Assembly: GCA_020725385.1 (NCBI GenBank)
Contig: DYFC01000043.1
Span: 1 to 13,462 of the forward strand
Reading direction: 5' to 3'
DNA: 13,462 nt
DNA from: Nitrospira japonica
GTDB lineage: Bacteria; Nitrospirota; Thermodesulfovibrionia; Thermodesulfovibrionales; SM23-35
Both the position numbers and the translations under genes were made by a program. The notes below the pieces were generated by a model. The model searched no databases, was not told where the DNA came from, and worked only from the letters and a program-made list of their open reading frames with translations. Positions 1 to 13,462 of this stretch are shown piece by piece (positions within the stretch are counted from its first letter, which is position 1; every line of letters begins with the position of its first letter).

Positions 1-77
1 GGCCGGACTCGAACCGGCACGGGGCGAACCCCGAGGGATTTTAAGTCCCTTGCGTCTACCAATTCCGCCACTTCGGC
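1..77 (-). tRNA. tRNA-Leu(TAA), 3' end cut off by the window edge
   Basis: Reverse complement reads GCCGAAGTGGCGGAATTGGTAGACGCAAGGGAC-TTAAAA-TCCCTCGGGGTTCGCCCCGTGCCGGTTCGAGTCCGGCC: D-loop GG, anticodon TAA, long variable arm (class II), T-loop TTCGAGT. Confidence 0.96.
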
Positions 78-85
78 ATTCTTAA

Positions 86-115
86 ATTTTAAACAATTTA
101 TATTGTTTTCATCAA
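86..115 (-). promoter_or_regulatory. Putative sigma70 promoter of tRNA-Leu
   Basis: Minus strand TTGATG (115-110), 18-nt spacer, TAAAAT (91-86), ending 8 nt before the tRNA 5' end. Confidence 0.5.
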
Positions 116-136
116 CCAGAAAAATGTAATTAGCGA

Positions 137-360
137 AGAGCAGAGAGCAAAGAGCGTAGAGCAAAGAGCATAGAGCATAGAGCAAAGAGCGAAGAGCAAA
201 GAGCGTAGAGCATAGAGCAAAGAGCAGAGGGCAAAGAGCAGAGGGCAAAGAGCAGAGGGCAAAGAGCGTAGAGCAAAGAGCAGAGGGCAAAGAGCAGAGG
301 GCAAAGAGCAGAGGGCAAAGAGCGTAGAGCAAAGAGCAGAGGGCAAAGAGCAGAGGGCAA
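137..360. repeat. Heptamer tandem array, 32 in-phase units of AG(A/G)GCNN
   Basis: Units AGAGCAA, AGAGCAG, AGGGCAA, AGAGCGT, AGAGCAT and AGAGCGA parse with an exact 7-bp period and no indels. A 56-bp higher-order unit is exactly repeated at 221-276 and 277-332, with a partial copy at 333-360. Confidence 0.97.
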
Positions 361-580
361 AGAGAAACAACACACTCCTACTTCCTTAATAGATGGAAGA
401 AAGAAATACGGGAAACTTGATACTTGAGACCGCATATTATCCGTATAGAATTCTTACACACACGGTTAACGGACATGTAAAACAGTTTACGTGTTACGAT
501 ATTTGAGCATTGTCTGTATTATTCTGGCTAATTGTTTATAATTGTATATTAAAATAATGAAGATATAAAGGAATAAATAT

Positions 581-1834
581 ATGGATAAGCTTGTTATTAA
601 AGGCGGGAAAAAGCTTAAAGGGATAGTTGAGATTAGCGGGGCTAAAAATGCGGCTTTGCCAATAATGGCTGCATCATTACTTTCAAATGGTTATTCGAAT
701 ATAAAAAACGTACCGTTTCTTAGAGATATTATGACAATGGGAAGACTTCTGGCTAATTTAGGCGCGGGATTTCATCAAGAAAAAAATAGAGTATTGATAA
801 ATACAGAGAGAATTAGGATTTTTGAAGCTCCTTATGATCTTGTAAGAACAATGAGGGCTTCTATACTTGTTCTTGGTCCATTGCTTACAAGATATGGAAG
901 AGCAAAAGTTTCTTTACCTGGTGGATGTGCTATTGGAGCAAGACCGATTAACCTCCATCTTTCCGGACTTGAGAAAATGGGTGCAGAAATTAAATTAGAG
1001 TCAGGTTATGTTATCGCAAAAGCAAAAAAATTAAAAGGTGCTTCTATATATCTTGATATACCTACTGTTACCGGTACAGAGAATCTTATGATTGCAGCTA
1101 CACTTGCAAAGGGTGTTACTTTAATAGAAAACGCAGCTAAAGAACCTGAAGTTACTGATCTTGCAAATGCTCTTATTTCCATGGGTGCTAAAATTGAAGG
1201 TGCAGGTGGAAGCATTATCAGGATTGAAGGAGTTCATGAATTAAAACCTCTGGATTATAGGGTTATTCCAGATAGAATCGAAGCAGGTACTTTTATGACC
1301 ATCGCCGGAATCACCTGTAGCGATATAACACTAAAAGGATGTAGTCCCGAACATCTTGATGCAACGGTATTCAAACTAAAGGAAGCAGGAATTATCTTTG
1401 AAAGTGCGCCTGAAGGATTGAGGGTTATCGGTAAGACAAGACCACATTCAACTAATGTGACAACAATGCCGTATCCGGGGTTTCCTACTGATATGCAGGC
1501 GCAGTTTATGGCTTTGATGAGTATTTCTGATGGAACAAGTATTATCAGGGAGAATATTTTTGAAAATAGGTTTATGCATGTTGCAGAACTTAGAAGAATG
1601 GGTGCGGATATTTCTGTTGAAGGAGGAACAGCAACTGTTAAAGGTGTTGAAAGGCTTAAAGGAGCTCCTTTAATGGCAACTGATTTAAGAGCAAGCGCTT
1701 CCTTGGTTGTTGCAGCATTGTCTGCAAAAGGAGAGACTGTTATTCACAGAATATACCATCTTGACAGAGGATATGAAAAAATGGAGGAGAAACTAAAGAA
1801 AATAGGAGCTGAAATAAAAAGAGTTAAGGAATAA
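581..1834 (+). CDS. murA: UDP-N-acetylglucosamine 1-carboxyvinyltransferase
   Basis: 417 aa with motifs GAKNAALP, MRASILVLGPL, LPGGCAIGARP (catalytic Cys), PGFPTDMQAQ, TDLRASA, YHLDRGYE; AAGGA RBS upstream. Confidence 0.98.
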   Translation: MDKLVIKGGKKLKGIVEISGAKNAALPIMAASLLSNGYSNIKNVPFLRDIMTMGRLLANLGAGFHQEKNRVLINTERIRIFEAPYDLVRTMRASILVLGPLLTRYGRAKVSLPGGCAIGARPINLHLSGLEKMGAEIKLESGYVIAKAKKLKGASIYLDIPTVTGTENLMIAATLAKGVTLIENAAKEPEVTDLANALISMGAKIEGAGGSIIRIEGVHELKPLDYRVIPDRIEAGTFMTIAGITCSDITLKGCSPEHLDATVFKLKEAGIIFESAPEGLRVIGKTRPHSTNVTTMPYPGFPTDMQAQFMALMSISDGTSIIRENIFENRFMHVAELRRMGADISVEGGTATVKGVERLKGAPLMATDLRASASLVVAALSAKGETVIHRIYHLDRGYEKMEEKLKKIGAEIKRVKE

Positions 1835-2279
1835 TTACAGGTTTATCACGTCTTGAATTAACAATGCATAAAAAACCAAAAGGCTTTTCAAATGGATTTC
1901 TCAACTGGTGTGGCTCGTTAGGTTTAATGTAAATAATATCAAGAAATTTAATATGGTATTTCTTTTTCCCGACAATGCATATACCCTCTCCATTTAAACC
2001 AATAACAACATGTTCATGGCGATGCTTTTCAAAACTACTGTAACCACCGGCCGAAATCTCAAAATATCTCACATGGAATTTTGTAGTTTCACCATGATTG
2101 CCAATAAGTGTCTGTCTTACTATATTTTTCCATTCATTACCTGACTGTTTGTATTTTTCTTTTTTAATATTGTTCCATGAAAAATTACCTTTATATTTGT
2201 AAAACCTGCTCTGGTTTAACAGACTCTTCTCTTTGACTTTCCCTCTCCAGTCACAAAATGATCCAGTAATTTTTTTCAT
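1824..2279 (-). CDS. Cupin domain protein
   Basis: Cupin motif 1 RYFEISAGGYSSFEKHRHEHVV..LNGEG and motif 2 DIIYIKPNEPHQLRN; its stop overlaps the murA end by 11 bp. Confidence 0.88.
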   Translation of the reverse strand: MKKITGSFCDWRGKVKEKSLLNQSRFYKYKGNFSWNNIKKEKYKQSGNEWKNIVRQTLIGNHGETTKFHVRYFEISAGGYSSFEKHRHEHVVIGLNGEGICIVGKKKYHIKFLDIIYIKPNEPHQLRNPFEKPFGFLCIVNSRRDKPVIIP

Positions 2280-3410
2280 TTAGTTATTACCTTTTAAGAT
2301 AGTGTTTTTCTTAAGATAATCAATAACCTTGTCAATCTTTGCTTTCATTTCTTCTTTTCTCCAGCTATTTTCAACATATTTTGCATCTCTAAGTTTATTA
2401 TCCATGAAACCTTCTTTTTTATATTTCTTTAAATATTCCTCAGGAATTCCATCTGGCAGATTAATATCATTCATAATTGCCCATGCAAGAGTCCATGCTT
2501 TCGCAACATTTGTAATATCATAACCACCGCCACCTAATGCTACCCATTTGGGTGATATTTCTTTTATTTTTCTTACAACCTCACAGTAACCATTATTTGT
2601 ATAGTTAAGATGAGCAAGAGGATCTGAGTGAAAGGAATCTACACCAAGCTGACTTACTACTATATCAGGTTTGAATTTTTCAATTAAAGGCGGTACTACT
2701 TCATTGAATGCATATACAAAAAGTTCATCATCAGAATATGGTGGCATAGGTATATTTACAGAATATCCTTCACCTTCTCCTGCGCCTGTCTCATGCTCAA
2801 ATCCGGTACCAGGAAAAAGTATCTCTCCTGTTTCATGTATTGATACTGTCAGAACCTGTTTTGAATCATAAAAAGCCTGTTGCACTCCATCACCATGATG
2901 TGCATCTATATCAATGTAAGCAATTCTCCTATTCTTTTTTAAGAGGGAAATGATGGCAATAACTATATCATTTATATAGCAGAAACCAGAGGCTTTTGAA
3001 GCCATGGCATGATGGAGTCCTCCGGATATATTAAAAGCTATATCAACTTCACCGCTTTCAACAAGATTGGCAGCCTGAAGCGATGCTCCGCACATAAGCC
3101 TCGACCAGTCAAGTAATCCTTGAAAAACCGGATTGTCACCCGAACCAACTCCATAAAAAAAAGCATGTGGCATCTCAATCCCGGAATTTGCCATTCTTAA
3201 AATATCAAGGTATTCCTTTTTATGGAAAAGAAGCAATTCTTCATCTGTTGCTTTTCTTGCTTTGATTAATTGTGTATTTGGTAAATTTAATAATCCATAT
3301 GATTGGATAAGTTCATAAACAAGTTTAAGCCTTGAGATTTTTAAAGGATGTTCAGGTCCGTAATCAAATTTAAGAAACTCATCTGTATAAATAAAAGCTG
3401 TTTTTGGCAT
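2280..3410 (-). CDS. acuC: AcuC-like / class I HDAC-family Zn-dependent deacetylase
   Basis: Motifs YGPEHPLK..R, GGLHHA, ASGFCYIND, YIDIDAHHGDGVQ, SIHETG..LFPGTG, QLGVDS...DPL, LGGGGY. Confidence 0.9.
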   Translation of the reverse strand: MPKTAFIYTDEFLKFDYGPEHPLKISRLKLVYELIQSYGLLNLPNTQLIKARKATDEELLLFHKKEYLDILRMANSGIEMPHAFFYGVGSGDNPVFQGLLDWSRLMCGASLQAANLVESGEVDIAFNISGGLHHAMASKASGFCYINDIVIAIISLLKKNRRIAYIDIDAHHGDGVQQAFYDSKQVLTVSIHETGEILFPGTGFEHETGAGEGEGYSVNIPMPPYSDDELFVYAFNEVVPPLIEKFKPDIVVSQLGVDSFHSDPLAHLNYTNNGYCEVVRKIKEISPKWVALGGGGYDITNVAKAWTLAWAIMNDINLPDGIPEEYLKKYKKEGFMDNKLRDAKYVENSWRKEEMKAKIDKVIDYLKKNTILKGNN

Positions 3411-3412
3411 AG

Positions 3413-4438
3413 TTAATCAAATATAATTATACTTTTTAAAGAGTTTTTTGCTTCAGCAGTAAGTCTGAAAGCCTCCTTTGTTTCTTCAATTTTAAATCTG
3501 TGGGTAATCAATTTTTGTGCATTCACAACCCCTTCAGCAATAAGCTCAAGTGCATCTGCTGTGTCTGAAGGTCCGCAAGAGTAGCTGGTTATAATATTAA
3601 TGTCTTTAAAATATAGTTCATTTGGATTAATTGTAAGTGTCTCATCAGGTTTTGCAGGAGTAAAAAAAACTACTTTGCCGCCAGCGCCAACGCAGAGAAT
3701 TCCCTGTTGCATAGCATTAACACTATTTGGACCTACTATTACAATATCAACCATTAACCCGTCTGTTACCGAACTTAATTCTTTAAGAAGATTGGAATTT
3801 GAGACATCTATTGTTATATCAGCCCCAAGTTCTTTTGCTTTGTTGAGTCTATAAGGTACCATATCGGCGCCTATGATTTTTTCTGCTCCGTATTTCTTTG
3901 CTAACAGAATATGAATCATTCCCATAACTCCGAGACCTATAATAAGTATTGTATCACCACGTCTTATGCCAGCTCTTTTTAGCGATTTAACAACACAGGC
4001 TGTTGGCTCAATTAAAGTTCCATCTTCAAAATTTACTGTTTCTGGAAGATTTAATGTATCATTCTCAAGATTAATTTCGGGTATCAATATATATTCAGAA
4101 ATTCCACCCGGTATTATTTTTGAGTTTTTCCATGTATCGCATTGGACATAATCGCCTTTTTTGCAATATTTGCAATTAAAACAAGGCGCATGATGATGAA
4201 CAAAAACTCTATCCCCGGGTTTAAAAGAATTAACTTTATTGCCTATCTCAACAATTATCCCTGATGGTTCATGACCGGGTACAAGAGGAGCTTTCTTCTC
4301 TATATACCATGGCATAACATCACCCGAACAAATGCCACAAGCTTTTGTCTTCAATAAAGCCTCATTCGGACCGGGTGAAGGGATGGGAATATCTTCAATT
4401 CTAATATCATTAAAGTTATATAATTTCGCAACTTTCAT
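3413..4438 (-). CDS. Zn-dependent medium-chain dehydrogenase (sorbitol/threonine dehydrogenase-like)
   Basis: CGICSGD and GHE catalytic Zn ligands; CxxCxxC-x7-C structural Zn site (CFNCKYCKKGDYVQC); Rossmann motif GLGVMG. Confidence 0.92.
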   Translation of the reverse strand: MKVAKLYNFNDIRIEDIPIPSPGPNEALLKTKACGICSGDVMPWYIEKKAPLVPGHEPSGIIVEIGNKVNSFKPGDRVFVHHHAPCFNCKYCKKGDYVQCDTWKNSKIIPGGISEYILIPEINLENDTLNLPETVNFEDGTLIEPTACVVKSLKRAGIRRGDTILIIGLGVMGMIHILLAKKYGAEKIIGADMVPYRLNKAKELGADITIDVSNSNLLKELSSVTDGLMVDIVIVGPNSVNAMQQGILCVGAGGKVVFFTPAKPDETLTINPNELYFKDINIITSYSCGPSDTADALELIAEGVVNAQKLITHRFKIEETKEAFRLTAEAKNSLKSIIIFD

Positions 4439-4587
4439 AGTTTAATTATACTAACAGAAAATTCTAAAAAAATTATTTATCCCGATAATGCTAAACTAAA
4501 CAAAATATAATATACTGCATTATATTTAATTTTATTGATTCTGGTAAAATTATTTTAATAAGGATTTATTTTTTAGAAGACAAGATT

Positions 4588-4743
4588 ATCTCGAAAATTG
4601 TAAAAGAGGTTATCAACTCGGGAGGACGAGTTATTCTTGAAGGATTACCAGTAGGATAGGAGTTATGATAAAAAGAAAAGGTATAAAGAAACCTTTATGA
4701 AAACATGCTTGAAGTGAGTAAAAGGTATAGGGGCAATAATTGA
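4588..4743 (+). pseudogene. Decayed small gene (probable former antitoxin) upstream of the PIN gene
   Basis: One frame reads (I)SKIVKEVINSGGRVILEGLPVG*, then several stops, then RNLYENMLEVSKRYRGNN*. Its TGA (4741-4743) overlaps the PIN TTG start (TTGA), as in coupled TA pairs. Confidence 0.45.
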
Positions 4744-4763
4744 AAATTTACCTTGATACAAAT
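4700..4763 (+). repeat. 64-bp direct repeat, copy 1 (contains PIN RBS, start and first 8 codons)
   Basis: AAAACATGCTTGAAGTGAGTAAAAGGTATAGGGGCAATAATTGAAAATTTACCTTGATACAAAT matches 5491-5554 at 63/64. Confidence 0.95.
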
Positions 4764-5201
4764 GTTATCTGTAGACCCTTTGATGATCACACTCAAGAAA
4801 GGATAGCTAAAGAGATAACTGCTATCAGCAAGCTTTTTGTTTATATCAGCAGTAGGATGTTTGATGTTGTCATATCAGATATAGTCCTTTCTGAAATAAC
4901 GCTTATCAAGAATCCGATTAAAAGAGAACTGGTTGAATTACTTGTAACGGAGATTACCACAAAAAGAGTTTCGGTTGGGAATTGTGAAATTACGATTGCC
5001 GATTTACTTCAAGATAAATGTAAAATAAATGACTATATGGATGCATTGCATGTTGCGTCTGCTGTAACAGCTAACTGTAAATACCTTGTTACATGTGATG
5101 ACGACTTAACCAGAAAAGCGGACTTTATTAAAAAAGAACTAATAAAGTCTGCATATAAAATAGAAATAGTAAACCCTTTAGACTTGATAAAGGAGGATTA
5201 A
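4740..5201 (+). CDS. PIN-domain (VapC-like) ribonuclease toxin
   Basis: N-terminal IYLDTNV, central SEI, DALHVASA and LVTCDDDL give the PIN acidic residues; TTG start. Confidence 0.88.
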   Translation: MKIYLDTNVICRPFDDHTQERIAKEITAISKLFVYISSRMFDVVISDIVLSEITLIKNPIKRELVELLVTEITTKRVSVGNCEITIADLLQDKCKINDYMDALHVASAVTANCKYLVTCDDDLTRKADFIKKELIKSAYKIEIVNPLDLIKED

Positions 5202-5204
5202 AAG

Positions 5205-5438
5205 ATGGTTAAAAAACTTCAGGAAGATATAATTGAAGAAGGGTTCAGTATCCTAAAAAAACACCTTGGAATTACCAAGACAGCTATATTTCTGGAGATG
5301 ATAGGGAGAGGACAAGGTGATAGCATTGAGGAGATAGAATCTAAAACTAAGAAATTTTCTAAACAAGAGGCAATTAAATTTATTGAAAAGTGCAAGAAAG
5401 AAAGAGCAGATTTATGGAACAAAATAAAGGTAGCTTAA
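5205..5438 (+). CDS. Small protein, probable antitoxin of the PIN toxin
   Basis: 77 aa, 3 bp after the PIN stop, strong AAGGAGG RBS. EEGFSILKKHLGITKTAIFL...G.GDS resembles small partners encoded downstream of PIN genes (recognition, not a search). Confidence 0.65.
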   Translation: MVKKLQEDIIEEGFSILKKHLGITKTAIFLEMIGRGQGDSIEEIESKTKKFSKQEAIKFIEKCKKERADLWNKIKVA

Positions 5439-5490
5439 AAGAAAATGCAGATGTAAGATAATGAAATGGATGACATAAAAGGATTTTATT

Positions 5491-5554
5491 AAAACATGCT
5501 TGAAGTGAGTAAAAGATATAGGGGCAATAATTGAAAATTTACCTTGATACAAAT
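5491..5554 (+). repeat. 64-bp direct repeat, copy 2
   Basis: Identical to 4700-4763 except one G>A; encodes only MKIYLDTN before diverging. Confidence 0.95.
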
Positions 5555-5590
5555 TTAGTAAAATGTATATTTGCACCTTTGTTTATTGTT

Positions 5591-6103
5591 TCAAGTAGGT
5601 TCAATTTGTTTTTTTAAATTTTTAATGACTAATTCAGCAACAATTCCATTTATTGTACCGGCAATTGTACCTGCAAGGACAATGAATGGAGAAACGAGTA
5701 TTATAGGTTCTATACGTTGAATAAGAAGGAAATAGGCAATAAAAAGCTGCATTATGTTATGAAAAAAAGCGCCAATGACACTAATGCCAACTGCACTGAA
5801 TAATTGAGGAATTAAAGATATTATCAACCACATTGAAATAGTTGCAGTAATTCCGCCACCGAGACTCATAATATAAGCCGGGCCAGGAAAAGTGCCATTA
5901 ATTAAAGATGAAATAAAAGTCCTGATAAGCGTAACTGTAAATGCTGCTCTGAATCCAAATAAATACAATGTAATTAGAGTTATTATGTTCGCAAGCCCGA
6001 ATCTAAGCCATGGAATTGGTGATGGCAAGAGATTTTCAATGCTATGGATACCTATTGCAAAGGCTGAAAGTAATGCAATTTGATATTTATTTTGTAACTG
6101 CAT
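5591..6103 (-). CDS. Gx transporter family membrane protein (heptaprenyl diphosphate synthase component I-like)
   Basis: Signature IENLLPSPIPWLRFGLANIITL, SLGGG and GAFFHNIMQL with several hydrophobic helices. Start placed at ATG 6103 (MQLQNK), overlapping the upstream gene end. Confidence 0.85.
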   Translation of the reverse strand: MQLQNKYQIALLSAFAIGIHSIENLLPSPIPWLRFGLANIITLITLYLFGFRAAFTVTLIRTFISSLINGTFPGPAYIMSLGGGITATISMWLIISLIPQLFSAVGISVIGAFFHNIMQLFIAYFLLIQRIEPIILVSPFIVLAGTIAGTINGIVAELVIKNLKKQIEPT

Positions 6104-6476
6104 CAATTCCACTACCTTCTTTTTTGTATTCACCGATTGAAACAATTATATTATTAGGCAAACAAATAATAGAGCCTGAATCTTTCCATCCCTGTTTTAT
6201 ACATAATTTATTTTCACATGGAGAAGAGGTAATTCTGACTTTTTTATCTTTTATTTCTACCGTTGTTATTCCAAGTCTGCCTTTAATATCTACTTTATTA
6301 TTTTCGTTTAACGATAAAATATAAACTTCTTTGCCTTCAGAATAAATATGGATGGATTGTTTGTTTGAAAATATTTTATTAAAAAATATTATGAAGCTGA
6401 AGCAAGAGATAAGCAGGAATAATATAAGAATCCTATCAGCTTTTGTTGTATTTTGAAGAATTTGAAGTAAATTCAA
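6087..6476 (-). CDS. NusG domain II-containing (DUF1312-type) membrane-anchored protein
   Basis: N-terminal TM after KADRILI; G.TTVEIKDKKVRITSSPCENKLCIKQGW...GSIICLPNNIIV signature. Confidence 0.87.
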   Translation of the reverse strand: MNLLQILQNTTKADRILILFLLISCFSFIIFFNKIFSNKQSIHIYSEGKEVYILSLNENNKVDIKGRLGITTVEIKDKKVRITSSPCENKLCIKQGWKDSGSIICLPNNIIVSIGEYKKEGSGIDAVTK

Positions 6477-7464
6477 TTTTTTTATCCAGTTCCGGTGTGA
6501 TAATTAAATTGTTTTCCTGATCAATTATCACTCCATATAATCCATTTTCTTCAAGAAATTTTAAACCCTTTTCATGTCCCAAAACAAATACTCCGGTAGC
6601 CAATGCATCTGTCATGGAATTTTCTTTTCCAATAACTGTAACGCTTTTACATGAATCAGCAGGCTTTCCTGTTTTAGTATTAAGTATATGATGATATTTT
6701 TTACTATCTAATATAAAAAATCTCTGGTAATCACCGGATGTTGAAATAGAAGAATCAGAAAGTTCAATAGCAGCAATAATATCATTTTCACCACTATTTG
6801 AATCGGGATCTTTAATGCCAATTTTCCATAATTTCTTGTCGGGTTTTGTACCGAAGGCATGTATTTCACCGCCAATAGCTACAATACCGGACTTAATCCC
6901 GTGACTTTTTAAGATTTCAACTGCTTTGTCTGAAGCATAACCTTTGGTGATTCCTCCAGTGTCAATAAGCATTCCTTTCTTTTTCAAAAAAACAGTTCGT
7001 TTTATTTTGTCAATTATAATATTTTTGTAATTAACGTACTCAAGCTTTTTTGCAATTTCTTCATCAGAAGGCTTGATTTTTTTTGAAAAGTCATATAAAG
7101 AACTTATTGCACCTATTGTTATATCAAAAGCACCTTTTGTTTTTTCAGATATATAGAATGCTTTTTCTAATATTTCAATTACAGTACTGGATACCTTAAC
7201 CGGCAATATACCTGCATTTTTATTAATCAAAGATATTTCGCTTTTATCTGAATAAAAATCAGTAAGTTGTTCAATTTTTTCAATTTCATTGAAAGCTGCT
7301 TTTATTGCTTTTTCAGCATTTTCTTTTGATTCTGATACAGCAGTTATTGTAACTACTGTATTCATATATAGTTGGGTATATTTGTAAATATGTTCTTTCT
7401 CCGGGGTACAGGAGTTTGTATGAAAAATAATAATGGTTAGGAGCAATAATAAATATCTCTTCAT
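6436..7464 (-). CDS. apbE: FAD:protein FMN transferase (flavin-trafficking lipoprotein)
   Basis: Signal peptide ending in Cys (TNSC); [63 protein letters not shown]. Confidence 0.95.
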
Positions 7465-9959
7465 CTTAGTTTTTTCTTCAGAAATTTTCCTGTATATGAA
7501 TCAGGATTAGCGCTTACTTCTTCTGGTGTCCCGGAAGCAACGACATAGCCGCCTTCATCACCACCCTCAGGACCTAAATCAATAATATAGTCTGCTGATT
7601 TTATAACATCAAGATTATGCTCGATAACTATTACGCTATTTCCTGCGTTTGTAAGTTGATTTATTACTTCAAGAAGTTTCTGTATATCAACAAAATGAAG
7701 TCCTGTAGTTGGTTCATCAAGAATGTAGATTGTATGACCCTTTGGTTTTTTGCCAAGTTCTTTTGATAACTTAATCCTCTGTGACTCACCACCGGATAGA
7801 GTTGAAGCAGGTTGTCCTAATTGAAGATACCCGAGTCCTACATTTTCAAGTACTTCAAGTTTATGGCGCAGTTGGGGTATAGCGGTAAAGAATTGTTTGG
7901 CTTCTGATACAGTCATTTGTAATACTTCAGCGATATTTTTATCTTTATATCTTATTTCAAGAGTTTCTTTATTGTATCTTTTGCCTTTACAGGTATCACA
8001 TGGTATATAAGCATCCGGGAGAAAATGCATTTCTACCTTAATCAATCCATCACCTTTGCAGGCTTCGCATCTTCCAGAGGGAAGATTGAAACTGAATCTT
8101 GAAGCAGTATATCCTCTTATTTTTGAATCAATAACATTTGAAAAGAGTTCTCTAATGAAGGTGAACGCTCCGGTATAAGTAGCAGGATTTGATCTTGGTG
8201 TTTTGCCGATTTGAGATTGGTCAACGCTGATAACTCTGTTAATTTTTTCAAGACCTTTTATTTCTTTATGTTTCCCCGGAATAACCTTGCTTTTATAAAG
8301 TTCTTTACAAAGTGCTTTATATAATACTTCTATTATCAGAGTGCTTTTACCCGAACCTGATACACCTGTTATGCATGTAAAAATACCAAGCGGAATTTCC
8401 ACATCAATGTTTTTGAGATTAAATTCTGATGCGCCGATTATTTTTATGGAATCCAGAGGTCTTTTTCTTATAATTGGAGTATCAATTGAAAGATAGTCGC
8501 TCAAATATTGACCTGTGATAGAATTTAGGTCTTTTTCTATATCCTGTGGTTTTCCGCATGATACAACCCATCCTCCTCTATTTCCTGACCCGGGTCCCAT
8601 ATCTACGATATAGTCTGCCCAGCGTATTGTTTCCTCGTCATGTTCTACTATGATCACAGTATTCCCTGCATCGCGTACTGCTTCGAGACTTTCAAGAAGT
8701 TTTTTACAATCACGCGGGTGCATTCCGATACTTGGCTCATCAAGTATATAAAGAACTCCTGATAAAGAAGAACCAAGCTGTGTAGCAAGCCTGATTCTCT
8801 GAGCCTCACCACCTGAAATAGAAAGAGAAGATCTGCTTAATGTTAGATAACCCAATCCAACTTTTTCAAGAAATTCAAGGCGGTCTTTTATTTCTTTTAT
8901 GATACGTGAAGATATGATCTTTTCACGCTCGGTTAATTCAAGATTATTAATAAAAGACAAAGCACCTGTTACATTTTTATTTGATAATGAAATGATATTT
9001 TCACCTTGAATAATTATACTCAGTGATTCTTTTCTAAGCCTTGAACCATTGCAGACCCTGCATGTTTTATAACTTATATCAGGGTCGAAGTCATCTTCAT
9101 TAATATTTTCGATTCCTAAGCCATTACACGCAGGACATGCACCCTGGCGGCTATTAAAGGAGAAAAACATCGGGTTGATCTCAGGAAAGTTGATTCCACA
9201 TTTTGTACATACCGCGGTTTTTGAATAAAGAATATCTTTGTTTTCTTTGAGCAAATTTATGATTACTATATCAGAATATCTTAGGGAAGTTTCTATAGCT
9301 GTTTTCAATTGACGGTCTATTCCGGGTTTTATAATTAATCTGTCAATTATAATTTCAATTGTATGCCTTTTATGTTTGTTTAAAGTAATATCATGGGTAA
9401 TATCAGTTATCTGTCCATCAATTCTTGCTCTTATAAAACCTTCATTACGCATTTCTCTGAGTTCTTTCTTATACTCTCCTTTTCTGTCTCTGACTATTGG
9501 AGAAAGTATCTGTATTTTGCTACCTGGCTCAAGTGACATTATCGATTGTATAATGTCTTCAGACTCCTGTTTTTTAACAAGAGAACCGCATTTATAACAG
9601 GTTTGTTTACCAATCCTTGTAAAAAGAACTCTGAGATAATCGTAAATTTCTGTTATAGTTCCTACTGTTGAACGCGGACTTTTAGTTACTGTTTTCTGGG
9701 TGATTGATATTGAAGGTGAAAGTCCCTCGATGTAGTCAACATCCGGTTTGCTCAATTGTTCTATGAATTGTCTTGCATATGCAGAAAGGCTTTCCACATA
9801 ACGTCTCTGTCCCTCTGCATAAATTGTATCAATGGCAAGGGAAGATTTTCCGGATCCGGAAGGCCCTGTAATAACAGTTACCGAGTCTCTCGGGATAGAG
9901 ACATCAATATTTTTGAGATTATGTTCACGAGCTCCCTTTATAACTAAGTATTCTTGCAT
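7461..9959 (-). CDS. uvrA: Excinuclease ABC subunit A (832 aa, short form)
   Basis: GAREHNLKN, two Walker A motifs ([18 protein letters not shown]), [11 protein letters not shown], signatures [11 protein letters not shown] and [11 protein letters not shown], two LDEP Walker B motifs, Zn-finger CxxC pairs. Confidence 0.97.
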
Positions 9960-10161
9960 ATGTTTAATCTTTTAGTATAACCAAAAACATAAAAGACAAG
10001 CTATCAGATAAGCAGACAAAGAGCGAAGAGCTACGAAGACTTTGATGAGCACGTGAAACATAACGTGGAAGGTCAGCACAGTGTATTATGTTAGAATACC
10101 AATGAGGAATTTTTTAGGATAAATTTTTATTAAAAATAATTTCAATAAAGGAGCGAATGAT

Positions 10162-10962
10162 ATGACTAACAATATTTCTTACAAAGATATGCAGGAAATT
10201 CTAATGGATGAACTCCGTCTTTTACATTATCCGGTTGCATTGAAATTTATTTTCAAAGAAGAAGAACTTGAAGACTTTGTCAAGAATGTATCATATTATG
10301 AGCCTGTGAAACCTTTAACTTTTTGCCAGATTGAGATCGCTGCCCGCATGAAGAAACAGACAGTCCTTGTGATGAGAGGAAATATAGGTTGCAGCAACGC
10401 AGCTTTTGTATTTGGATGGAAATCATACGACGATGCTGAAGTCAAGAGTCATCTAAAATATGTTAAAGACTGGGATCAAGCAGTAAGGTTTGTAAAGACA
10501 AAGCCTCGCCTTCCTGAAGGCGCAATGAAAGCATTAATTGTTTCACCACTTGCCGATACATATTTTCAACCTGATACAGTTCATTTTTATTGCGACAATA
10601 TGCAGGCTTATCATCTTTTGGTCGATTACATGTCTGCTATGGATGTGCACCCGCTTCATCCAAACTTAACTATAAATTCAGCAGCGTGCGGTGGAAATGT
10701 TTTCTCATATCTTGAAAAGACAGCGAATCTTATTACAGCCTGCAGCGGCACGTACAATTCGGGAAAAATGGAGAGAGGTGAAATCAATGTGATAATACCG
10801 GGTGAGCATATTGAAGCAACGGTACAAAGACTACTTGACCGTATTAAGAATCTTGGGAGTTCTTCTCTTACGAGGCCGGGTGATCATTTTCCAGGGGCAG
10901 ATATATGCAAAAATTGTCCGATGATTGTATTTAGAAAGAAGAAAGATAGTATTGTCTCCTGA
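10162..10962 (+). CDS. DUF169-family protein (Cys-rich)
   Basis: PVALKF, TFCQ..IAAR, IGCSNAAFVFG, SAACG, CSGTYNSG, E..VIIP pattern plus C-terminal CKNC; AAGGAG RBS. Confidence 0.75.
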   Translation: MTNNISYKDMQEILMDELRLLHYPVALKFIFKEEELEDFVKNVSYYEPVKPLTFCQIEIAARMKKQTVLVMRGNIGCSNAAFVFGWKSYDDAEVKSHLKYVKDWDQAVRFVKTKPRLPEGAMKALIVSPLADTYFQPDTVHFYCDNMQAYHLLVDYMSAMDVHPLHPNLTINSAACGGNVFSYLEKTANLITACSGTYNSGKMERGEINVIIPGEHIEATVQRLLDRIKNLGSSSLTRPGDHFPGADICKNCPMIVFRKKKDSIVS

Positions 10963-11087
10963 TGACAGAAGATAAAATGGATAAGGGTTATGGTAATATT
11001 AATTGTTTTGCGAAAATCAAGGATAGGCGAGATTTTATAATTCCATACACTTTGTTTATCCTTTTTGAATTTTTAATACCACGTAAG

Positions 11088-11109
11088 AAATTCCATACCT
11101 ATGGAATTT
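11088..11109. promoter_or_regulatory. Perfect 10-bp inverted repeat, candidate operator
   Basis: AAATTCCATA-CC-TATGGAATTT, 77 bp upstream of the DUF1573 gene; extra half-site AATTCCATAC at 11039-11048. Confidence 0.5.
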
Positions 11110-11186
11110 ACAATGATTTTGAGGACGAATATGTAAAACATAAAGTGTGAAGATTTTTTTATAGATTATGATATAAAATATGTATT

Positions 11187-11555
11187 ATGAAAAAAATACT
11201 TCTACTCATAATCTTGATAGTTTTTCCTGCAATCTGTTTTGCACAGCCTTCGATTGTTTTTGATAAGGAAAGACAGGATTTTGGAGAGGTTAAGAAAGGT
11301 ACAGAACTTGAATATACTTTCGAATTTGTCAACAATGGAAATGAAGAATTAATTATATCAAAAATAATTACATCATGAGGATGTACGGCAGCTATGGCTA
11401 GTTCGAGCCATATTAAACCAGGGGAGAAAGGAAAAATCAACACTAAAGTTGATACAGAGGGAAGAGGGGGGTATCTTCATAAACCTATTGCAGTTCATTC
11501 AAATGATCCTCAAAGACCTATTGTTCACCTTTATATTACCGCGATATTAAGATAA
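11187..11555 (+). CDS. Exported DUF1573-type Ig-like protein, predicted selenoprotein (122 aa, Sec at codon 64)
   Basis: Signal peptide (..AICFA/QP), then DFGEVKKG..LEYTFEFVNNGNEELIISKIITS-[TGA]-GCTAAMASSSHIKPGEKGKINTKVDTEGRGGYLHKPIAVHSNDPQRPIVHLYITAILR-TAA. The family motif is SCGCT, and typical downstream motifs (I.PGE.G.I, V.SNDP) lie past the TGA. Confidence 0.88.
11379..11412 (+). promoter_or_regulatory. Candidate bacterial SECIS element
   Basis: Perfect 7-bp stem TATGGCT (11393-11399) / AGCCATA (11406-11412), 6-nt loop AGTTCG with G at position 2, and 21 nt between the TGA and the loop. Confidence 0.75.
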
Positions 11556-11564
11556 ATAATTATC

Positions 11565-11810
11565 ATGTTAAAAGAAAGCTGTCCTGGAAGCAGGGAAATA
11601 AGAACACCTTATCCAGAAGAAATAAGATGCTTCTGGTGTGATAGAATAAATGAGATTTGGTCGGATGAAGTCGAAATAACATGTAAAAATTGTAAAAAAC
11701 AGATAACCCGTGATATGAAGCCTTCCTGTATTGAATGGTGTCCGGTAGCAAAAGAATGTATTGGAGTCGAAAAATATGAAAAGCTCATGAAACGTAAAAA
11801 AGTCGAATGA
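11565..11810 (+). CDS. Small Cys-rich, probably metal-binding protein (8 Cys in 81 aa)
   Basis: Pattern CPG..CxxC..EIWSDE..CxxC..SCIEWC..AKECIG; starts 9 bp after the read-through stop of the upstream gene. Confidence 0.8.
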   Translation: MLKESCPGSREIRTPYPEEIRCFWCDRINEIWSDEVEITCKNCKKQITRDMKPSCIEWCPVAKECIGVEKYEKLMKRKKVE

Positions 11811-11813
11811 CTC

Positions 11814-12185
11814 TTAAGACTTTATGAATCTTATTTTAAATGGATAAGAAAAACTTCCGCCCTGATACGATCTAAGAGAGGCAAAGATAATACATATCGC
11901 ATTGATAAATGCAATTATAAAGAGTAAAAACATCCCTATTCTGATATGTATAAACAATGCTGCAAATAAAGCATATAAAGTCATAGATAGCTGAAAATTT
12001 AATGCTTCGATTCCCTGTTCTTTAACAAAAGGATAAATGTTTCTTTTCAAAAGCCAAATGATTAAAGGTCCTGCTATGTGTCCAAAAGGAATTCCCAACA
12101 AACCAATTAAAGCACTAAGATGACAGGCAGATGCCCATATTCTTGCCTGTTTATCCATTTCAATGATTGGTTCTTGATTATTCAT
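11814..12185 (-). CDS. DUF4870-family membrane protein
   Basis: WASACHLSAL, GPLIIWLLK, FV.EQG.EALNFQLS and G..FSYPF.IRFIK motifs; ATGA overlap with the upstream gene. Confidence 0.88.
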   Translation of the reverse strand: MNNQEPIIEMDKQARIWASACHLSALIGLLGIPFGHIAGPLIIWLLKRNIYPFVKEQGIEALNFQLSMTLYALFAALFIHIRIGMFLLFIIAFINAICIIFASLRSYQGGSFSYPFKIRFIKS

Positions 12186-13036
12186 GAACTTTTGTTATTT
12201 GAGCGGCAGAGAGCGTCCGCTTCTTTTTTTAATAAGTGTGCAAGATGTATATCAATCCTGCTTTTTCTTAAAAAAGTATCTTCATCCATATCAGCAATAT
12301 CTTTTGCAAAAACAATATCATTTCGAAAAAGCATTTCAAGAGCATTTTTATTAATAGATGAAAGAATTGTAACAGGATATAGTTTTTTTGTCTCTATAAT
12401 TTTTTCGAGGCTTTCTTTTTCCGGATATTTCCAGCTAACTATTTTCAGCCCCACACATTCTGCATAACGCAAGGCATCATCTGAACAACGGGTGTTTGTC
12501 ACAAGCCAACCCTGCTGTGATGGAAAGTGATTGTCAGGTGATGATTCAAAAGCTTTTTTAATATCATTGAATCTTGAATGTACATAGAGCGCTGTCTTAA
12601 CATCTGTAGAATTTCCTGAATTACTATGGTATTTGCATTCAATTATTACAATATTATTTTCTTTTTTCGCTAATATATCAACTTCGTGAGAAACGCAATA
12701 GCCTTGAATTATTTTCCCTACTTCGGTAAAGTAGCCATAGGCTCTTAATATTCCGGCCACATATTTTTCGAATTGAAAACCCGCAGGACCAAGTGAATAT
12801 ATTGCTTTTTTTATAGAATAACGCATGTCAGAGACTTTGCTATATTGTCGTAATAATTTTTTGGCTATTTTAAAAATGTGTCTTGTGTGGGATGAGGGGG
12901 TAATTTGAGTTTCAATCTTTTTGGCAATTTCAAGGGCAACATCTTCAGTAGCACCTGATCTTATGAGAGAATTAACGAGTTTGTTTCTATCGAATTCCTC
13001 TAATTTCCCTGAAGCTTTAATTACAGTTTGAGCCAT
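12182..13036 (-). CDS. ATP-cone domain plus Mrr-like PD-(D/E)xK endonuclease domain protein
   Basis: N-terminal VIKASGKLEEFDRNKLVNSL (ATP cone); GFQFEKYV, HEVDILA, IECKYH and LVTNTR (Mrr-type nuclease core). Confidence 0.85.
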   Translation of the reverse strand: MAQTVIKASGKLEEFDRNKLVNSLIRSGATEDVALEIAKKIETQITPSSHTRHIFKIAKKLLRQYSKVSDMRYSIKKAIYSLGPAGFQFEKYVAGILRAYGYFTEVGKIIQGYCVSHEVDILAKKENNIVIIECKYHSNSGNSTDVKTALYVHSRFNDIKKAFESSPDNHFPSQQGWLVTNTRCSDDALRYAECVGLKIVSWKYPEKESLEKIIETKKLYPVTILSSINKNALEMLFRNDIVFAKDIADMDEDTFLRKSRIDIHLAHLLKKEADALCRSNNKSS

Positions 13037-13044
13037 AAGTATGA

Positions 13045-13122
13045 TGGCGGGGCGGACGGGACTTGAACCCGCGACCTCTGGCTTGACAGGCCAGCGTTCT
13101 GACCAAGCTGAACTACCGCCCC
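13045..13122 (-). tRNA. tRNA-Asp(GTC)
   Basis: Reverse complement folds fully: acceptor GGGGCGG/CCGCCCC, anticodon arm CTGGC-CTGTCAA-GCCAG, T-loop TTCAAGT, encoded GCCA end. Confidence 0.98.
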
Positions 13123-13160
13123 AAAAAGTTATATAGCTGAGACAAAATTATCAGTTCTAA

Positions 13161-13236
13161 TGGTAGGCGGAACAGGACTTGAACCTGTGACCCCAGCCTT
13201 GTAAGGGCTGTGCTCTCCCAGCTGAGCTATCCGCCC
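13161..13236 (-). tRNA. tRNA-Val(TAC)
   Basis: Reverse complement GGGCGGATAGCTCAGCTGGGAGAGCA-CAGCC-CTTACAA-GGCTG-GGGTCACAGGTTCAAGTCCTGTTCCGCCTACCA, 76 nt with encoded CCA. Confidence 0.98.
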
Positions 13237-13274
13237 GAAACATAAAATGAAATGTGATATTATACAGAAGTAAT

Positions 13275-13304
13275 ATAATATTAGTTTTATTTATCTTTTG
13301 TCAA
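13275..13304 (-). promoter_or_regulatory. Putative sigma70 promoter of the tRNA-Val/tRNA-Asp operon
   Basis: Minus strand TTGACA (13304-13299), 18-nt spacer, TATTAT (13280-13275); a second TATAAT lies near 13259-13264. Confidence 0.55.
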
Positions 13305-13328
13305 TAAAGAGAACGAAAATTTGCCATC

Positions 13329-13379
13329 TACGAATTAAAAGTGAACCGTTTTTTGTAAATTTACGAATTAAAAGTGAAC
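13329..13379 (+). repeat. Two identical 18-bp direct repeats, period 33
   Basis: TACGAATTAAAAGTGAAC at 13329-13346 and 13362-13379. Confidence 0.93.
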
Positions 13380-13423
13380 ACCTAAAAAGTTTAATATAAG
13401 CCTCAAAAAAGGAGGTTTATATT

Positions 13424-13462
13424 TTGGGACAGCTACACAGGAAGTTCACGAATGAACAGGTA
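13424..13462 (+). CDS. 5' fragment of a gene (MGQLHRKFTNEQV...), possibly a transposase
   Basis: Strong RBS GGAGG at 13411-13415, TTG start and open frame to the window edge. The N-terminus resembles transposases I recall starting MxQLHKRFTDxQV, but only 13 codons are visible. Confidence 0.5.
   Translation, partial: MGQLHRKFTNEQV

Follow-up and report, generated by a model that had tools for sequence, protein, structure and literature searches.

A hairpin at 11393-11412 on the forward strand of contig DYFC01000043.1 (assembly GCA_020725385.1, labelled Nitrospira japonica) is very probably, at a probability that we put near 0.93, a bacterial selenocysteine insertion sequence (bSECIS) lying in the coding region of a DUF1573 selenoprotein gene with a U-G-C motif. 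The window, that is, the whole stretch of DNA analysed, comprises positions 1 to 13,462 of this contig. The observations behind this reading are the structure of the hairpin, its covariation among homologues, its restriction to forms of the gene that carry TGA, its agreement with the bSECIS model, and the fact that the genome has selA, selB and selC. The selenoprotein family is already known, and the hairpin is an ordinary bSECIS within it that leaves the understanding of selenocysteine (Sec) decoding unchanged. The annotation is mended: the locus is a gene for a 122-residue selenoprotein, and neither a 63-residue fragment nor a pseudogene. Many homologues across the phylum need the same correction, being truncated by standard gene callers.

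The features of the locus are given below. Columns are those of A1, a gapless alignment of 70 TGA-bearing homologues over 60 columns, running from 6 nucleotides (nt) upstream of the TGA to 51 nt downstream.

11187..11555, + strand: DUF1573 selenoprotein gene, 122 codons including UGA as codon 64, ending with TAA (translated with TGA as U)
11187..11243, + strand: probable Sec-type signal peptide MKKILLLIILIVFPAICFA, cleavage before QP, judged by eye
11376..11378, + strand: in-frame UGA, Sec residue 64 (same aligned codon is TGA in homologues)
11382..11384, + strand: UGU, Cys66, partner in the U-G-C motif (from the translation)
11391..11413, + strand: optional G11391.U11413 pair below the one-base bulge C11392 (columns 22/44)
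11393..11399, + strand: SECIS upper stem, 5' arm UAUGGCU (sequence and RNAfold; columns 24-30, all covarying with 37-43)
11400..11405, + strand: apical loop AGUUCG, with G11401 invariant in 70/70 homologues
11406..11412, + strand: SECIS upper stem, 3' arm AGCCAUA (sequence, RNAfold and covariation)

The perfect stem TATGGCT/AGCCATA with loop AGTTCG, first described from the sequence in a first-pass annotation of this DNA, is present at 11393-11399, 11400-11405 and 11406-11412 and consists of seven Watson-Crick pairs. The distance of 21 nt reported there holds from the UGA to the loop (11379-11399); the stem itself begins 14 nt after the UGA. RNAfold returned the same hairpin as both the minimum free energy (MFE) structure and the centroid, in a 55-nt context (-9.5 kcal/mol) and in a 121-nt context alike, and the hairpin on its own was predicted at -7.9 kcal/mol. 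Two further descriptions were also accurate. The hairpin lies in a GC-richer patch of an AT-rich gene (52.9% GC over 11379-11412 vs 34.1% for the gene, sixth among 335 windows of 34 nt), and its lower stem is weak, with just two more G-C pairs (11387/88 with 11418/19) and the possible G11391.U11413 pair. Among 60,000 TGA triplets sampled from the 96,685 on both strands of the genome, 0.625% were followed at SECIS distance by a perfect hairpin of at least 7 base pairs (bp) with a G in the first two loop positions. The hairpin taken alone is only mildly unusual, and its significance derives from the comparison with homologues, not from the single-sequence fold. An Rfam scan of the whole window at E values up to 1 found no SECIS family, only tRNAs and one chance match to a snoRNA, which means merely that no curated model matched. 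The segment 11373-11414 is identical, without a differing letter, in DNA contigs from three public runs belonging to two studies; since contigs from two studies agree, the TGA is no mistake confined to this assembly.

Of 401 genomes of the phylum searched in all six frames, 156 had a homologue. Among the 150 matches listed, exactly one TGA was present in 127 and none in 23; 39 further matches stand outside these 150. The TGA-bearing sample analysed here consisted of 70 of the 127 (the 30 best and 40 lower-ranked), and the Cys-codon sample of the phylum of the first 20 of the 23 without TGA. Eight more Cys forms came from other phyla; they were picked via peptide patterns among nine loci and are biased to 'CGCTAAMA'. 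The TGA was aligned with residue 64 in 69 of the 70 TGA forms. All 28 examined forms without TGA carry TGC or TGT at the aligned codon, and the TGA forms have a conserved frame downstream of the TGA. The hairpin had initially been offered as support for recoding as opposed to pseudogenisation, and the evidence agrees with this: in 127 of the 150 matches listed the aligned codon is likewise TGA, and TGA is otherwise an ordinary stop. In the genome under study TGA ends 261 of 1235 long open reading frames (ORFs), and the genetic code is therefore standard, with TGA as a normal stop.

The comparison with homologues is what decides the case. In A1, standard pairs filled 89.6% of the stem cells (columns 24-30 with 37-43), vs 16.9-45.5% when the 3' partner was slid by 1-3 columns. 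All seven stem pairs displayed changes on both sides, and 93 double-change cells were observed vs 33.8 +/- 4.2 after shuffling, a count that none of 500 shuffles reached. The covariation score was 0.541 (control, 0.275). RNAalifold, supplied with no structure, predicted this hairpin alone. The 70 homologues contain 41 distinct arm pairs, including GAUGGCU/AGCCAUC, GGUGAUC/GAUCACC, GGUGGUC/GACCACC, UGUGGUC/GACCACA and UCUGGCU/AGCCGGA. Several of these stems entail amino-acid replacement on both arms, from M-A...S-H to V-I...D-H or V-V...D-H, such that GAUGGCU/AGCCAUC encodes M-A-S-S-S-H and GGUGAUC/GAUCACC encodes V-I-S-S-D-H. A U.G pair occupies columns 26/41 in 23 of the 70 rows; the opposite strand would have A.C there, and the constraint thus acts on the sense RNA. 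Five rows have at most four of seven pairs in this register (L074, L076, L080, L089 and L099); they form the same hairpin, closed by the 5-nt loop AGUUC. Stem covariation among TGA-containing homologues was one of the checks proposed at the outset, and in the 70 examined the hairpin is indeed kept by compensatory changes.

The loop is more uniform than the stem. Its letters were AGTTCG in 29 homologues, AGTTCA in 24, AGTTCT in 5, AGTTCC in 3 and other in 9; AGUUCR was therefore present in 53/70, and a G at loop position 2 (column 32) in 70/70. The first loop codon of the 70 Sec forms was AGT in 63, AGC in 1, GGT or GGG in 6 and TCN in none. Spacing from UGA to hairpin was equal in 69/70, with L099 longer by 3 nt. 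Below the stem, columns 22/44 read GU in 64 and AU in 4 of the 70, which may reflect the protein and not the RNA, both being constrained codon positions; in the lower stem (columns 20-22 with 44-46) nothing was kept beyond this G22.U44 (68/70). The homologues, whose 41 stem variants share an invariant loop G and a constant spacing, make up an unusually clean natural covariation series. Such a series could serve for training or benchmarking SECIS predictors, and it illustrates the mutual constraint between an RNA element and the peptide encoded in it.

Three side observations concern the homologues themselves. The motif of L099 (G214:C4) is U-K-A-C; its TGA comes one codon earlier, and its hairpin is kept 3 nt farther away. 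L091 (G163:C23) has U-G-A-D, a Sec without the following Cys, and keeps the hairpin. In several families of the order (for example in G284, G272, G208, G220, G344 and G306) the open frame that holds the homologue has ~226-264 residues, where ~125-150 is usual; such lengths suggest two-domain or fused selenoprotein forms.

Loss of the hairpin in Cys homologues had likewise been named as a check, and pairing is gone in the 28 Cys forms examined. In the same columns the 20 Cys forms of the phylum paired at a mean of 2.75/7, vs 6.27/7 in the Sec forms, and the median energy of the forced hairpin was +4.3 vs -8.8 kcal/mol. The eight Cys forms of other phyla paired at 1-4/7, although several retain the peptide AAMASS, and the 5' arm and loop letters as well; L134, for instance, reads GAUGGCU AGUUCA and then AAAUUAU. 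TCN was found at the first loop codon in 3 of the 15 Cys forms that have Ser there. Judged from these alignments, a complementary 3' arm is peculiar to the TGA forms.

The loop letters AGTTCC, AGTTCG or AGTTCA, sometimes with the 5' arm, occur without the 3' arm in the Cys forms L042-L045, L047, L134 and L136. Their sequences suggest decayed SECIS remnants, which would imply conversion of Sec to Cys; alternatively, the peptide may be ancestral and the SECIS may have been built on it later.

The SECIS elements of E. coli fdhF and fdnG have an upper stem with a bulged U, a GGUC-type loop and a lower stem that includes the UGA, and they present SelB with a G-U apical loop at a fixed short distance past the UGA, in frame. 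The element described here has an unbroken upper stem, the loop AGUUCR and an unpaired UGA, but like them it has an in-frame apical loop with G-U a fixed short distance past the UGA. FdhA of the same genome has a GGUCU loop that recalls the GGUC type of E. coli. In the published bSECIS consensus that bSECISearch uses, the loop is 3-9 nt, the stem 4-16 bp, the UGA-to-loop distance 16-37 nt and the MFE at most -7.5, and one or both of the two opening loop positions are G, as a rule with G or U next (PMC13188914). Our hairpin falls within all of these bounds (loop of 6 nt, stem of 7 bp, G then U at loop positions 2 and 3, 21 nt, -7.9/-9.5 kcal/mol), in accordance with the initial remark that its placement and its small loop with an early G are those of bacterial elements. 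As a stem-loop within the coding sequence directly 3' of a Sec-UGA, it is in no conflict with the model. The N1...N2 base pair of the published loop pattern, which mostly holds, is not evident for the A...C of AGUUCG, and the lower stem here is very weak.

The family itself has a history in the literature. A DUF1573 selenoprotein with a 'UGC' motif appears in PMC9312934 and PMC13188914, and the family traces to OS_HP2 of the 2007 Olavius symbiont study (PMC1976440). The protein described here resembles OS_HP2 in its Pfam family, DUF1573, in having U-G-C at the C-G-C site of the family, and in its nearest NCBIfam model. The legend to Fig. 5 of PMC1976440 refers to SECIS drawings for five other new families, OS_HP2 not among them, and a SECIS and covariation for the OS_HP2 family may therefore be absent from that paper.

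The gene starts with ATG at 11187, carries TGA in frame at 11376-11378, and remains open to TAA at 11553-11555. The motif around the Sec is T-S-U-G-C-T, and C66 is nearly invariant (at least 90%) in alignment A2. Pfam DUF1573 (PF07610) matched residues 23-118 at 89.2 bits (cut-off 26.1), over profile positions 1-95 of 98. The best-scoring NCBIfam model was NF041425, 'OS_HP2 family (seleno)protein'; with C put for U, the match reached 81.4 bits. This score does not reach the curated cut-off of 100 bits, and the protein is for that reason filed as DUF1573 with a UGC motif and not as a certified member of NF041425. A PDB sequence search with the protein gave no match. An AlphaFold2 (AF2) model built from 68 sequences had a predicted local distance difference test (pLDDT) score of 92.9, and of 96-98 from residue 21 onward, and depicts an immunoglobulin-like (Ig-like) beta-sandwich in which strands 55-62 and 66-70 are joined by a turn that holds U64. 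The nearest solved folds in a structure search were 2qsv (top match, function unknown), HYDIN/PapD-like domains and the Ig domains of VesB/VesC. The predicted fold thus has a generic likeness (Ig-like, PapD-like or HYDIN) that tells nothing on function or chemistry. The N-terminus has a basic start, a hydrophobic core and a small-x-small end, with pLDDT of only 65-72; from its sequence it is probably a Sec-type signal peptide, and the product is probably exported.

The same genome was scanned for other genes with an in-frame TGA by crude codon scoring on either side of the TGA, followed by Pfam. The scan yielded 612 filtered candidates, many of them false, and its overlap filter dropped the DUF1573 gene in favour of an antisense ORF (11159-11443); its output is not a complete selenoproteome. 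In seven other genes a Pfam domain spans the in-frame TGA and a hairpin of 5-8 bp follows, as given here in the form arm-loop-arm.

RnfB-like: GUUCGCA-GGU-UGCGAAC
Methyltransferase (SAM): AGUUCC-GGUUGA-GGAACU
FdhA: UAGCC-GGUCU-GGCUA
DsrE-like: AGCUCACG-GACU-UGUGAGCU
HesB-like: UGACUAU-GGAC-AUAGUCA
Peroxiredoxin: UUUCGGC-AGUU-GCUGAAA
DsbC-like, UxxC: CUUCAUC-AGGA-GAUGAAG

The coordinates of these genes together with an eighth candidate are C31:134476-135621(-), C26:19593-20384(-), C27:32849-35563(-), C31:58757-59065(-), C45:30971-31255(+), C45:33359-34078(+), C62:14927-15700(+) and C60:42415-42723(-). Counted from the U of the UGA, the loop starts at 20-25 nt in the seven genes and at 24 in the DUF1573 gene, and its hairpin ranks ninth by energy among the 612 candidates. 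In the comparison with the other SECIS elements of its own genome the hairpin is accordingly alike, with G at loop position 1 or 2 throughout. The eighth candidate matched a 'DF family (seleno)protein' model below threshold (43 bits vs a cut-off of 70). Candidates rejected as selenoproteins were LolA/TsaD (L114) and a 2Fe-2S protein (L116), which represent adjacent genes or true stops, and L115, L117 and L118, which had no family match.

The genome encodes selA (628.5 bits), a canonical selB (C52; 358.5 bits) and a tRNA-Sec with anticodon UCA (72 bits). By analogy with the established bacterial pathway, a ribosome at UGA64 would hold the hairpin just outside its mRNA entry channel, where the C-terminal winged-helix domains of SelB would bind the apical loop (the invariant G, then U) and the upper helix. 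SelB.GTP.Sec-tRNASec(UCA) would thus be tethered at the A site and would outcompete release factor 2, Sec would be inserted at UGA64, and 58 more codons would be translated. The product, probably exported, would present a U-G-C capable of forming a selenylsulfide in the turn between two beta-strands. The same analogy underlies SelB binding, Sec insertion, export and a redox function alike.

A second tRNA shaped like tRNA-Sec was observed in this genome (G000), with a second selB directly downstream, at G000:C15:21092-23099 (L124:193-2200, - strand). This tRNA scored 57.7 bits on RF01852 and has an 8-bp acceptor stem, the discriminator U (U73) and the Cys anticodon GCA. The second factor, SelB*, is a full-length protein that retains the C-terminal wing domain; it shares 58% identity with canonical SelB and reached 384 bits with the selB model. 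Among 61 sampled genomes of the order, 59 gave one SelB match and G000 alone had two full copies; the second match in G408 is no more than a fragment of 52 residues that sits at a contig end. With five same-genus genomes added (66 in all), a second full-length SelB was found in this genus only, in G000 and its closest relative G286. Such a tRNA adjoins the second full-length SelB in G286 and, in G390, a SelB fragment situated at a contig end. A selC* tRNA-Cys has been reported in Thermodesulfovibrio and others, and selB*, in the part of that report available to us, only in Syntrophobacterales and Desulfobacterales (PMC5389517, Mukai et al.). The arrangement found here is like the selC*/selB* module of that report in its Sec-shaped tRNA with U73 and GCA followed directly by a second selB; it differs in that the nearest named relative is here labelled Nitrospirae, and in its ARAGORN arms of 8/5 and not 8/4.

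Several points weigh against reading the hairpin as a bSECIS. The conservation of nucleotides in the 5' arm and loop is partly due to the peptide AAMASS, which also occurs in Cys forms, and the hairpin might be a by-product of a conserved peptide, A-A-M-A-S-S-S-H, its complementarity being incidental. AAMASS, even with the codons AUG GCU AGU UCA, is present in the Cys homologues L134 and L136 of other phyla, 5 of the phylum's 20 Cys forms still have AGTTCC or AGTTCG as loop letters, and the 55-nt fold does not stand out from its shuffles (z = -0.09, with 84 of 200 equally stable). Those Cys forms, however, are without a complementary 3' arm (1-4/7 pairs), the arms of TGA forms change together, two-sided replacements included (93 double-change cells vs 33.8), and the slid controls pair at no more than 46%, and we regard a mere by-product as very improbable. 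Both the TGA and the Cys samples were partial. Further, the homologues are kin, and the shuffle statistics and Mann-Whitney p-values overstate their independence; the slid controls and the count of distinct stems are not affected by kinship in the same way.

The remaining adverse points concern the decoding machinery. No selD was found in the assembly (best TIGR00476 match of 69 bits vs a cut-off of 125; best E of 0.001 in tblastn with a same-genus SelD) or in G286, and G000 has two SelB paralogues. The missing selD, together with the closure of the frame at 11378 by Table 11 ORF calling, would suit a UGA that is a true stop, in a pseudogene or a gene for a 63-residue product, with the hairpin having another role or none. 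Against such a stop stand the TGA codon shared by 127 of the 150 matches listed, with the reading frame conserved downstream, a Pfam match that crosses the UGA, an AF2 model that is confident across it, and the lack of a T-run after the 3' arm of the hairpin (11406-11412); we give it almost no credence. A search of G000 and 15 relatives found a selD, itself with a TGA, in 14 of the 16, and selA, selB, selC and TGA-containing genes are kept in both G000 and G286. In two same-genus genomes selD resides on contigs of ~2-2.6 kb; the present assembly is 96.6% complete and has no contig below 5155 bp. Loss of selD in assembly is therefore plausible, and its absence is probably due to an assembly gap. 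As for the second paralogue, SelB* might use the hairpin instead of or besides canonical SelB. It is full-length with its wing domain, its tRNA gene lies immediately upstream, and a UGU codon stands two codons past the UGA in the motif. A GCA anticodon, on the other hand, cannot read UGA, the same hairpin is found in dozens of genomes of the order where only one SelB was found, and the UGU-to-loop distance of 15 nt is just outside the 16-37 nt of the model, so that this use of the hairpin appears highly unlikely. Equally doubtful is the idea that one hairpin serves two factors, with SelB delivering Sec-tRNA to UGA64 and SelB* delivering Cys-tRNA to the UGU two codons later, which rests on the co-occurrence of SelB* and the GCA tRNA in this genus; if it were true, both redox residues of the U-G-C motif would be installed by SECIS-tethered factors.

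Apart from the DUF1573 gene, an in-frame TGA was noted in a NuoB gene of the same genome at C31:43759-44274 (+) (L113/L126; 251 bits on the NuoB subfamily model), where it replaces the first Cys of the motif G-L-A-C-C-A-I-E-M-M. The UGA lies at the base of a 9-bp stem (UGAUGUGCU...GGCGCAUCA), and the version in G259 is more fully paired. The best NuoB match contained one TGA in 19 of 61 sampled genomes of the order, belonging to several families, and none in the others. The term 'NuoB' is absent from the 2026 selenoproteome review, and a literature search of titles and abstracts on NuoB with selenocysteine returned nothing on point.

In the window, an ORF for an 81-residue Cys-rich protein with several CxxC pairs (11565-11810, +) begins 10 nt past the selenoprotein gene. 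No Pfam or NCBIfam model matched it. Of 29 related loci checked, 4 have it next to the DUF1573 gene (51-93% identity), and it may encode a functional partner of the selenoprotein. The DUF1573 gene lies beside uvrA in 9 of these 29 loci. Here uvrA is at 7461-9959 (-), and between the two are a DUF169 gene (10162-10962, +) and a 62-codon ORF (10962-11150, +), neither of which had a match in the 29 loci. The window also carries a tRNA at 1-77 (-) that is cut by the window start, as well as tRNA-Asp(GTC) and tRNA-Val(TAC) at 13045-13122 (-) and 13161-13236 (-). Finally, a PIN-domain gene at 4740-5201 is followed by a 77-codon ORF without a family match (region 4740-5438, +), and the two may form a toxin-antitoxin pair in an unusual order.

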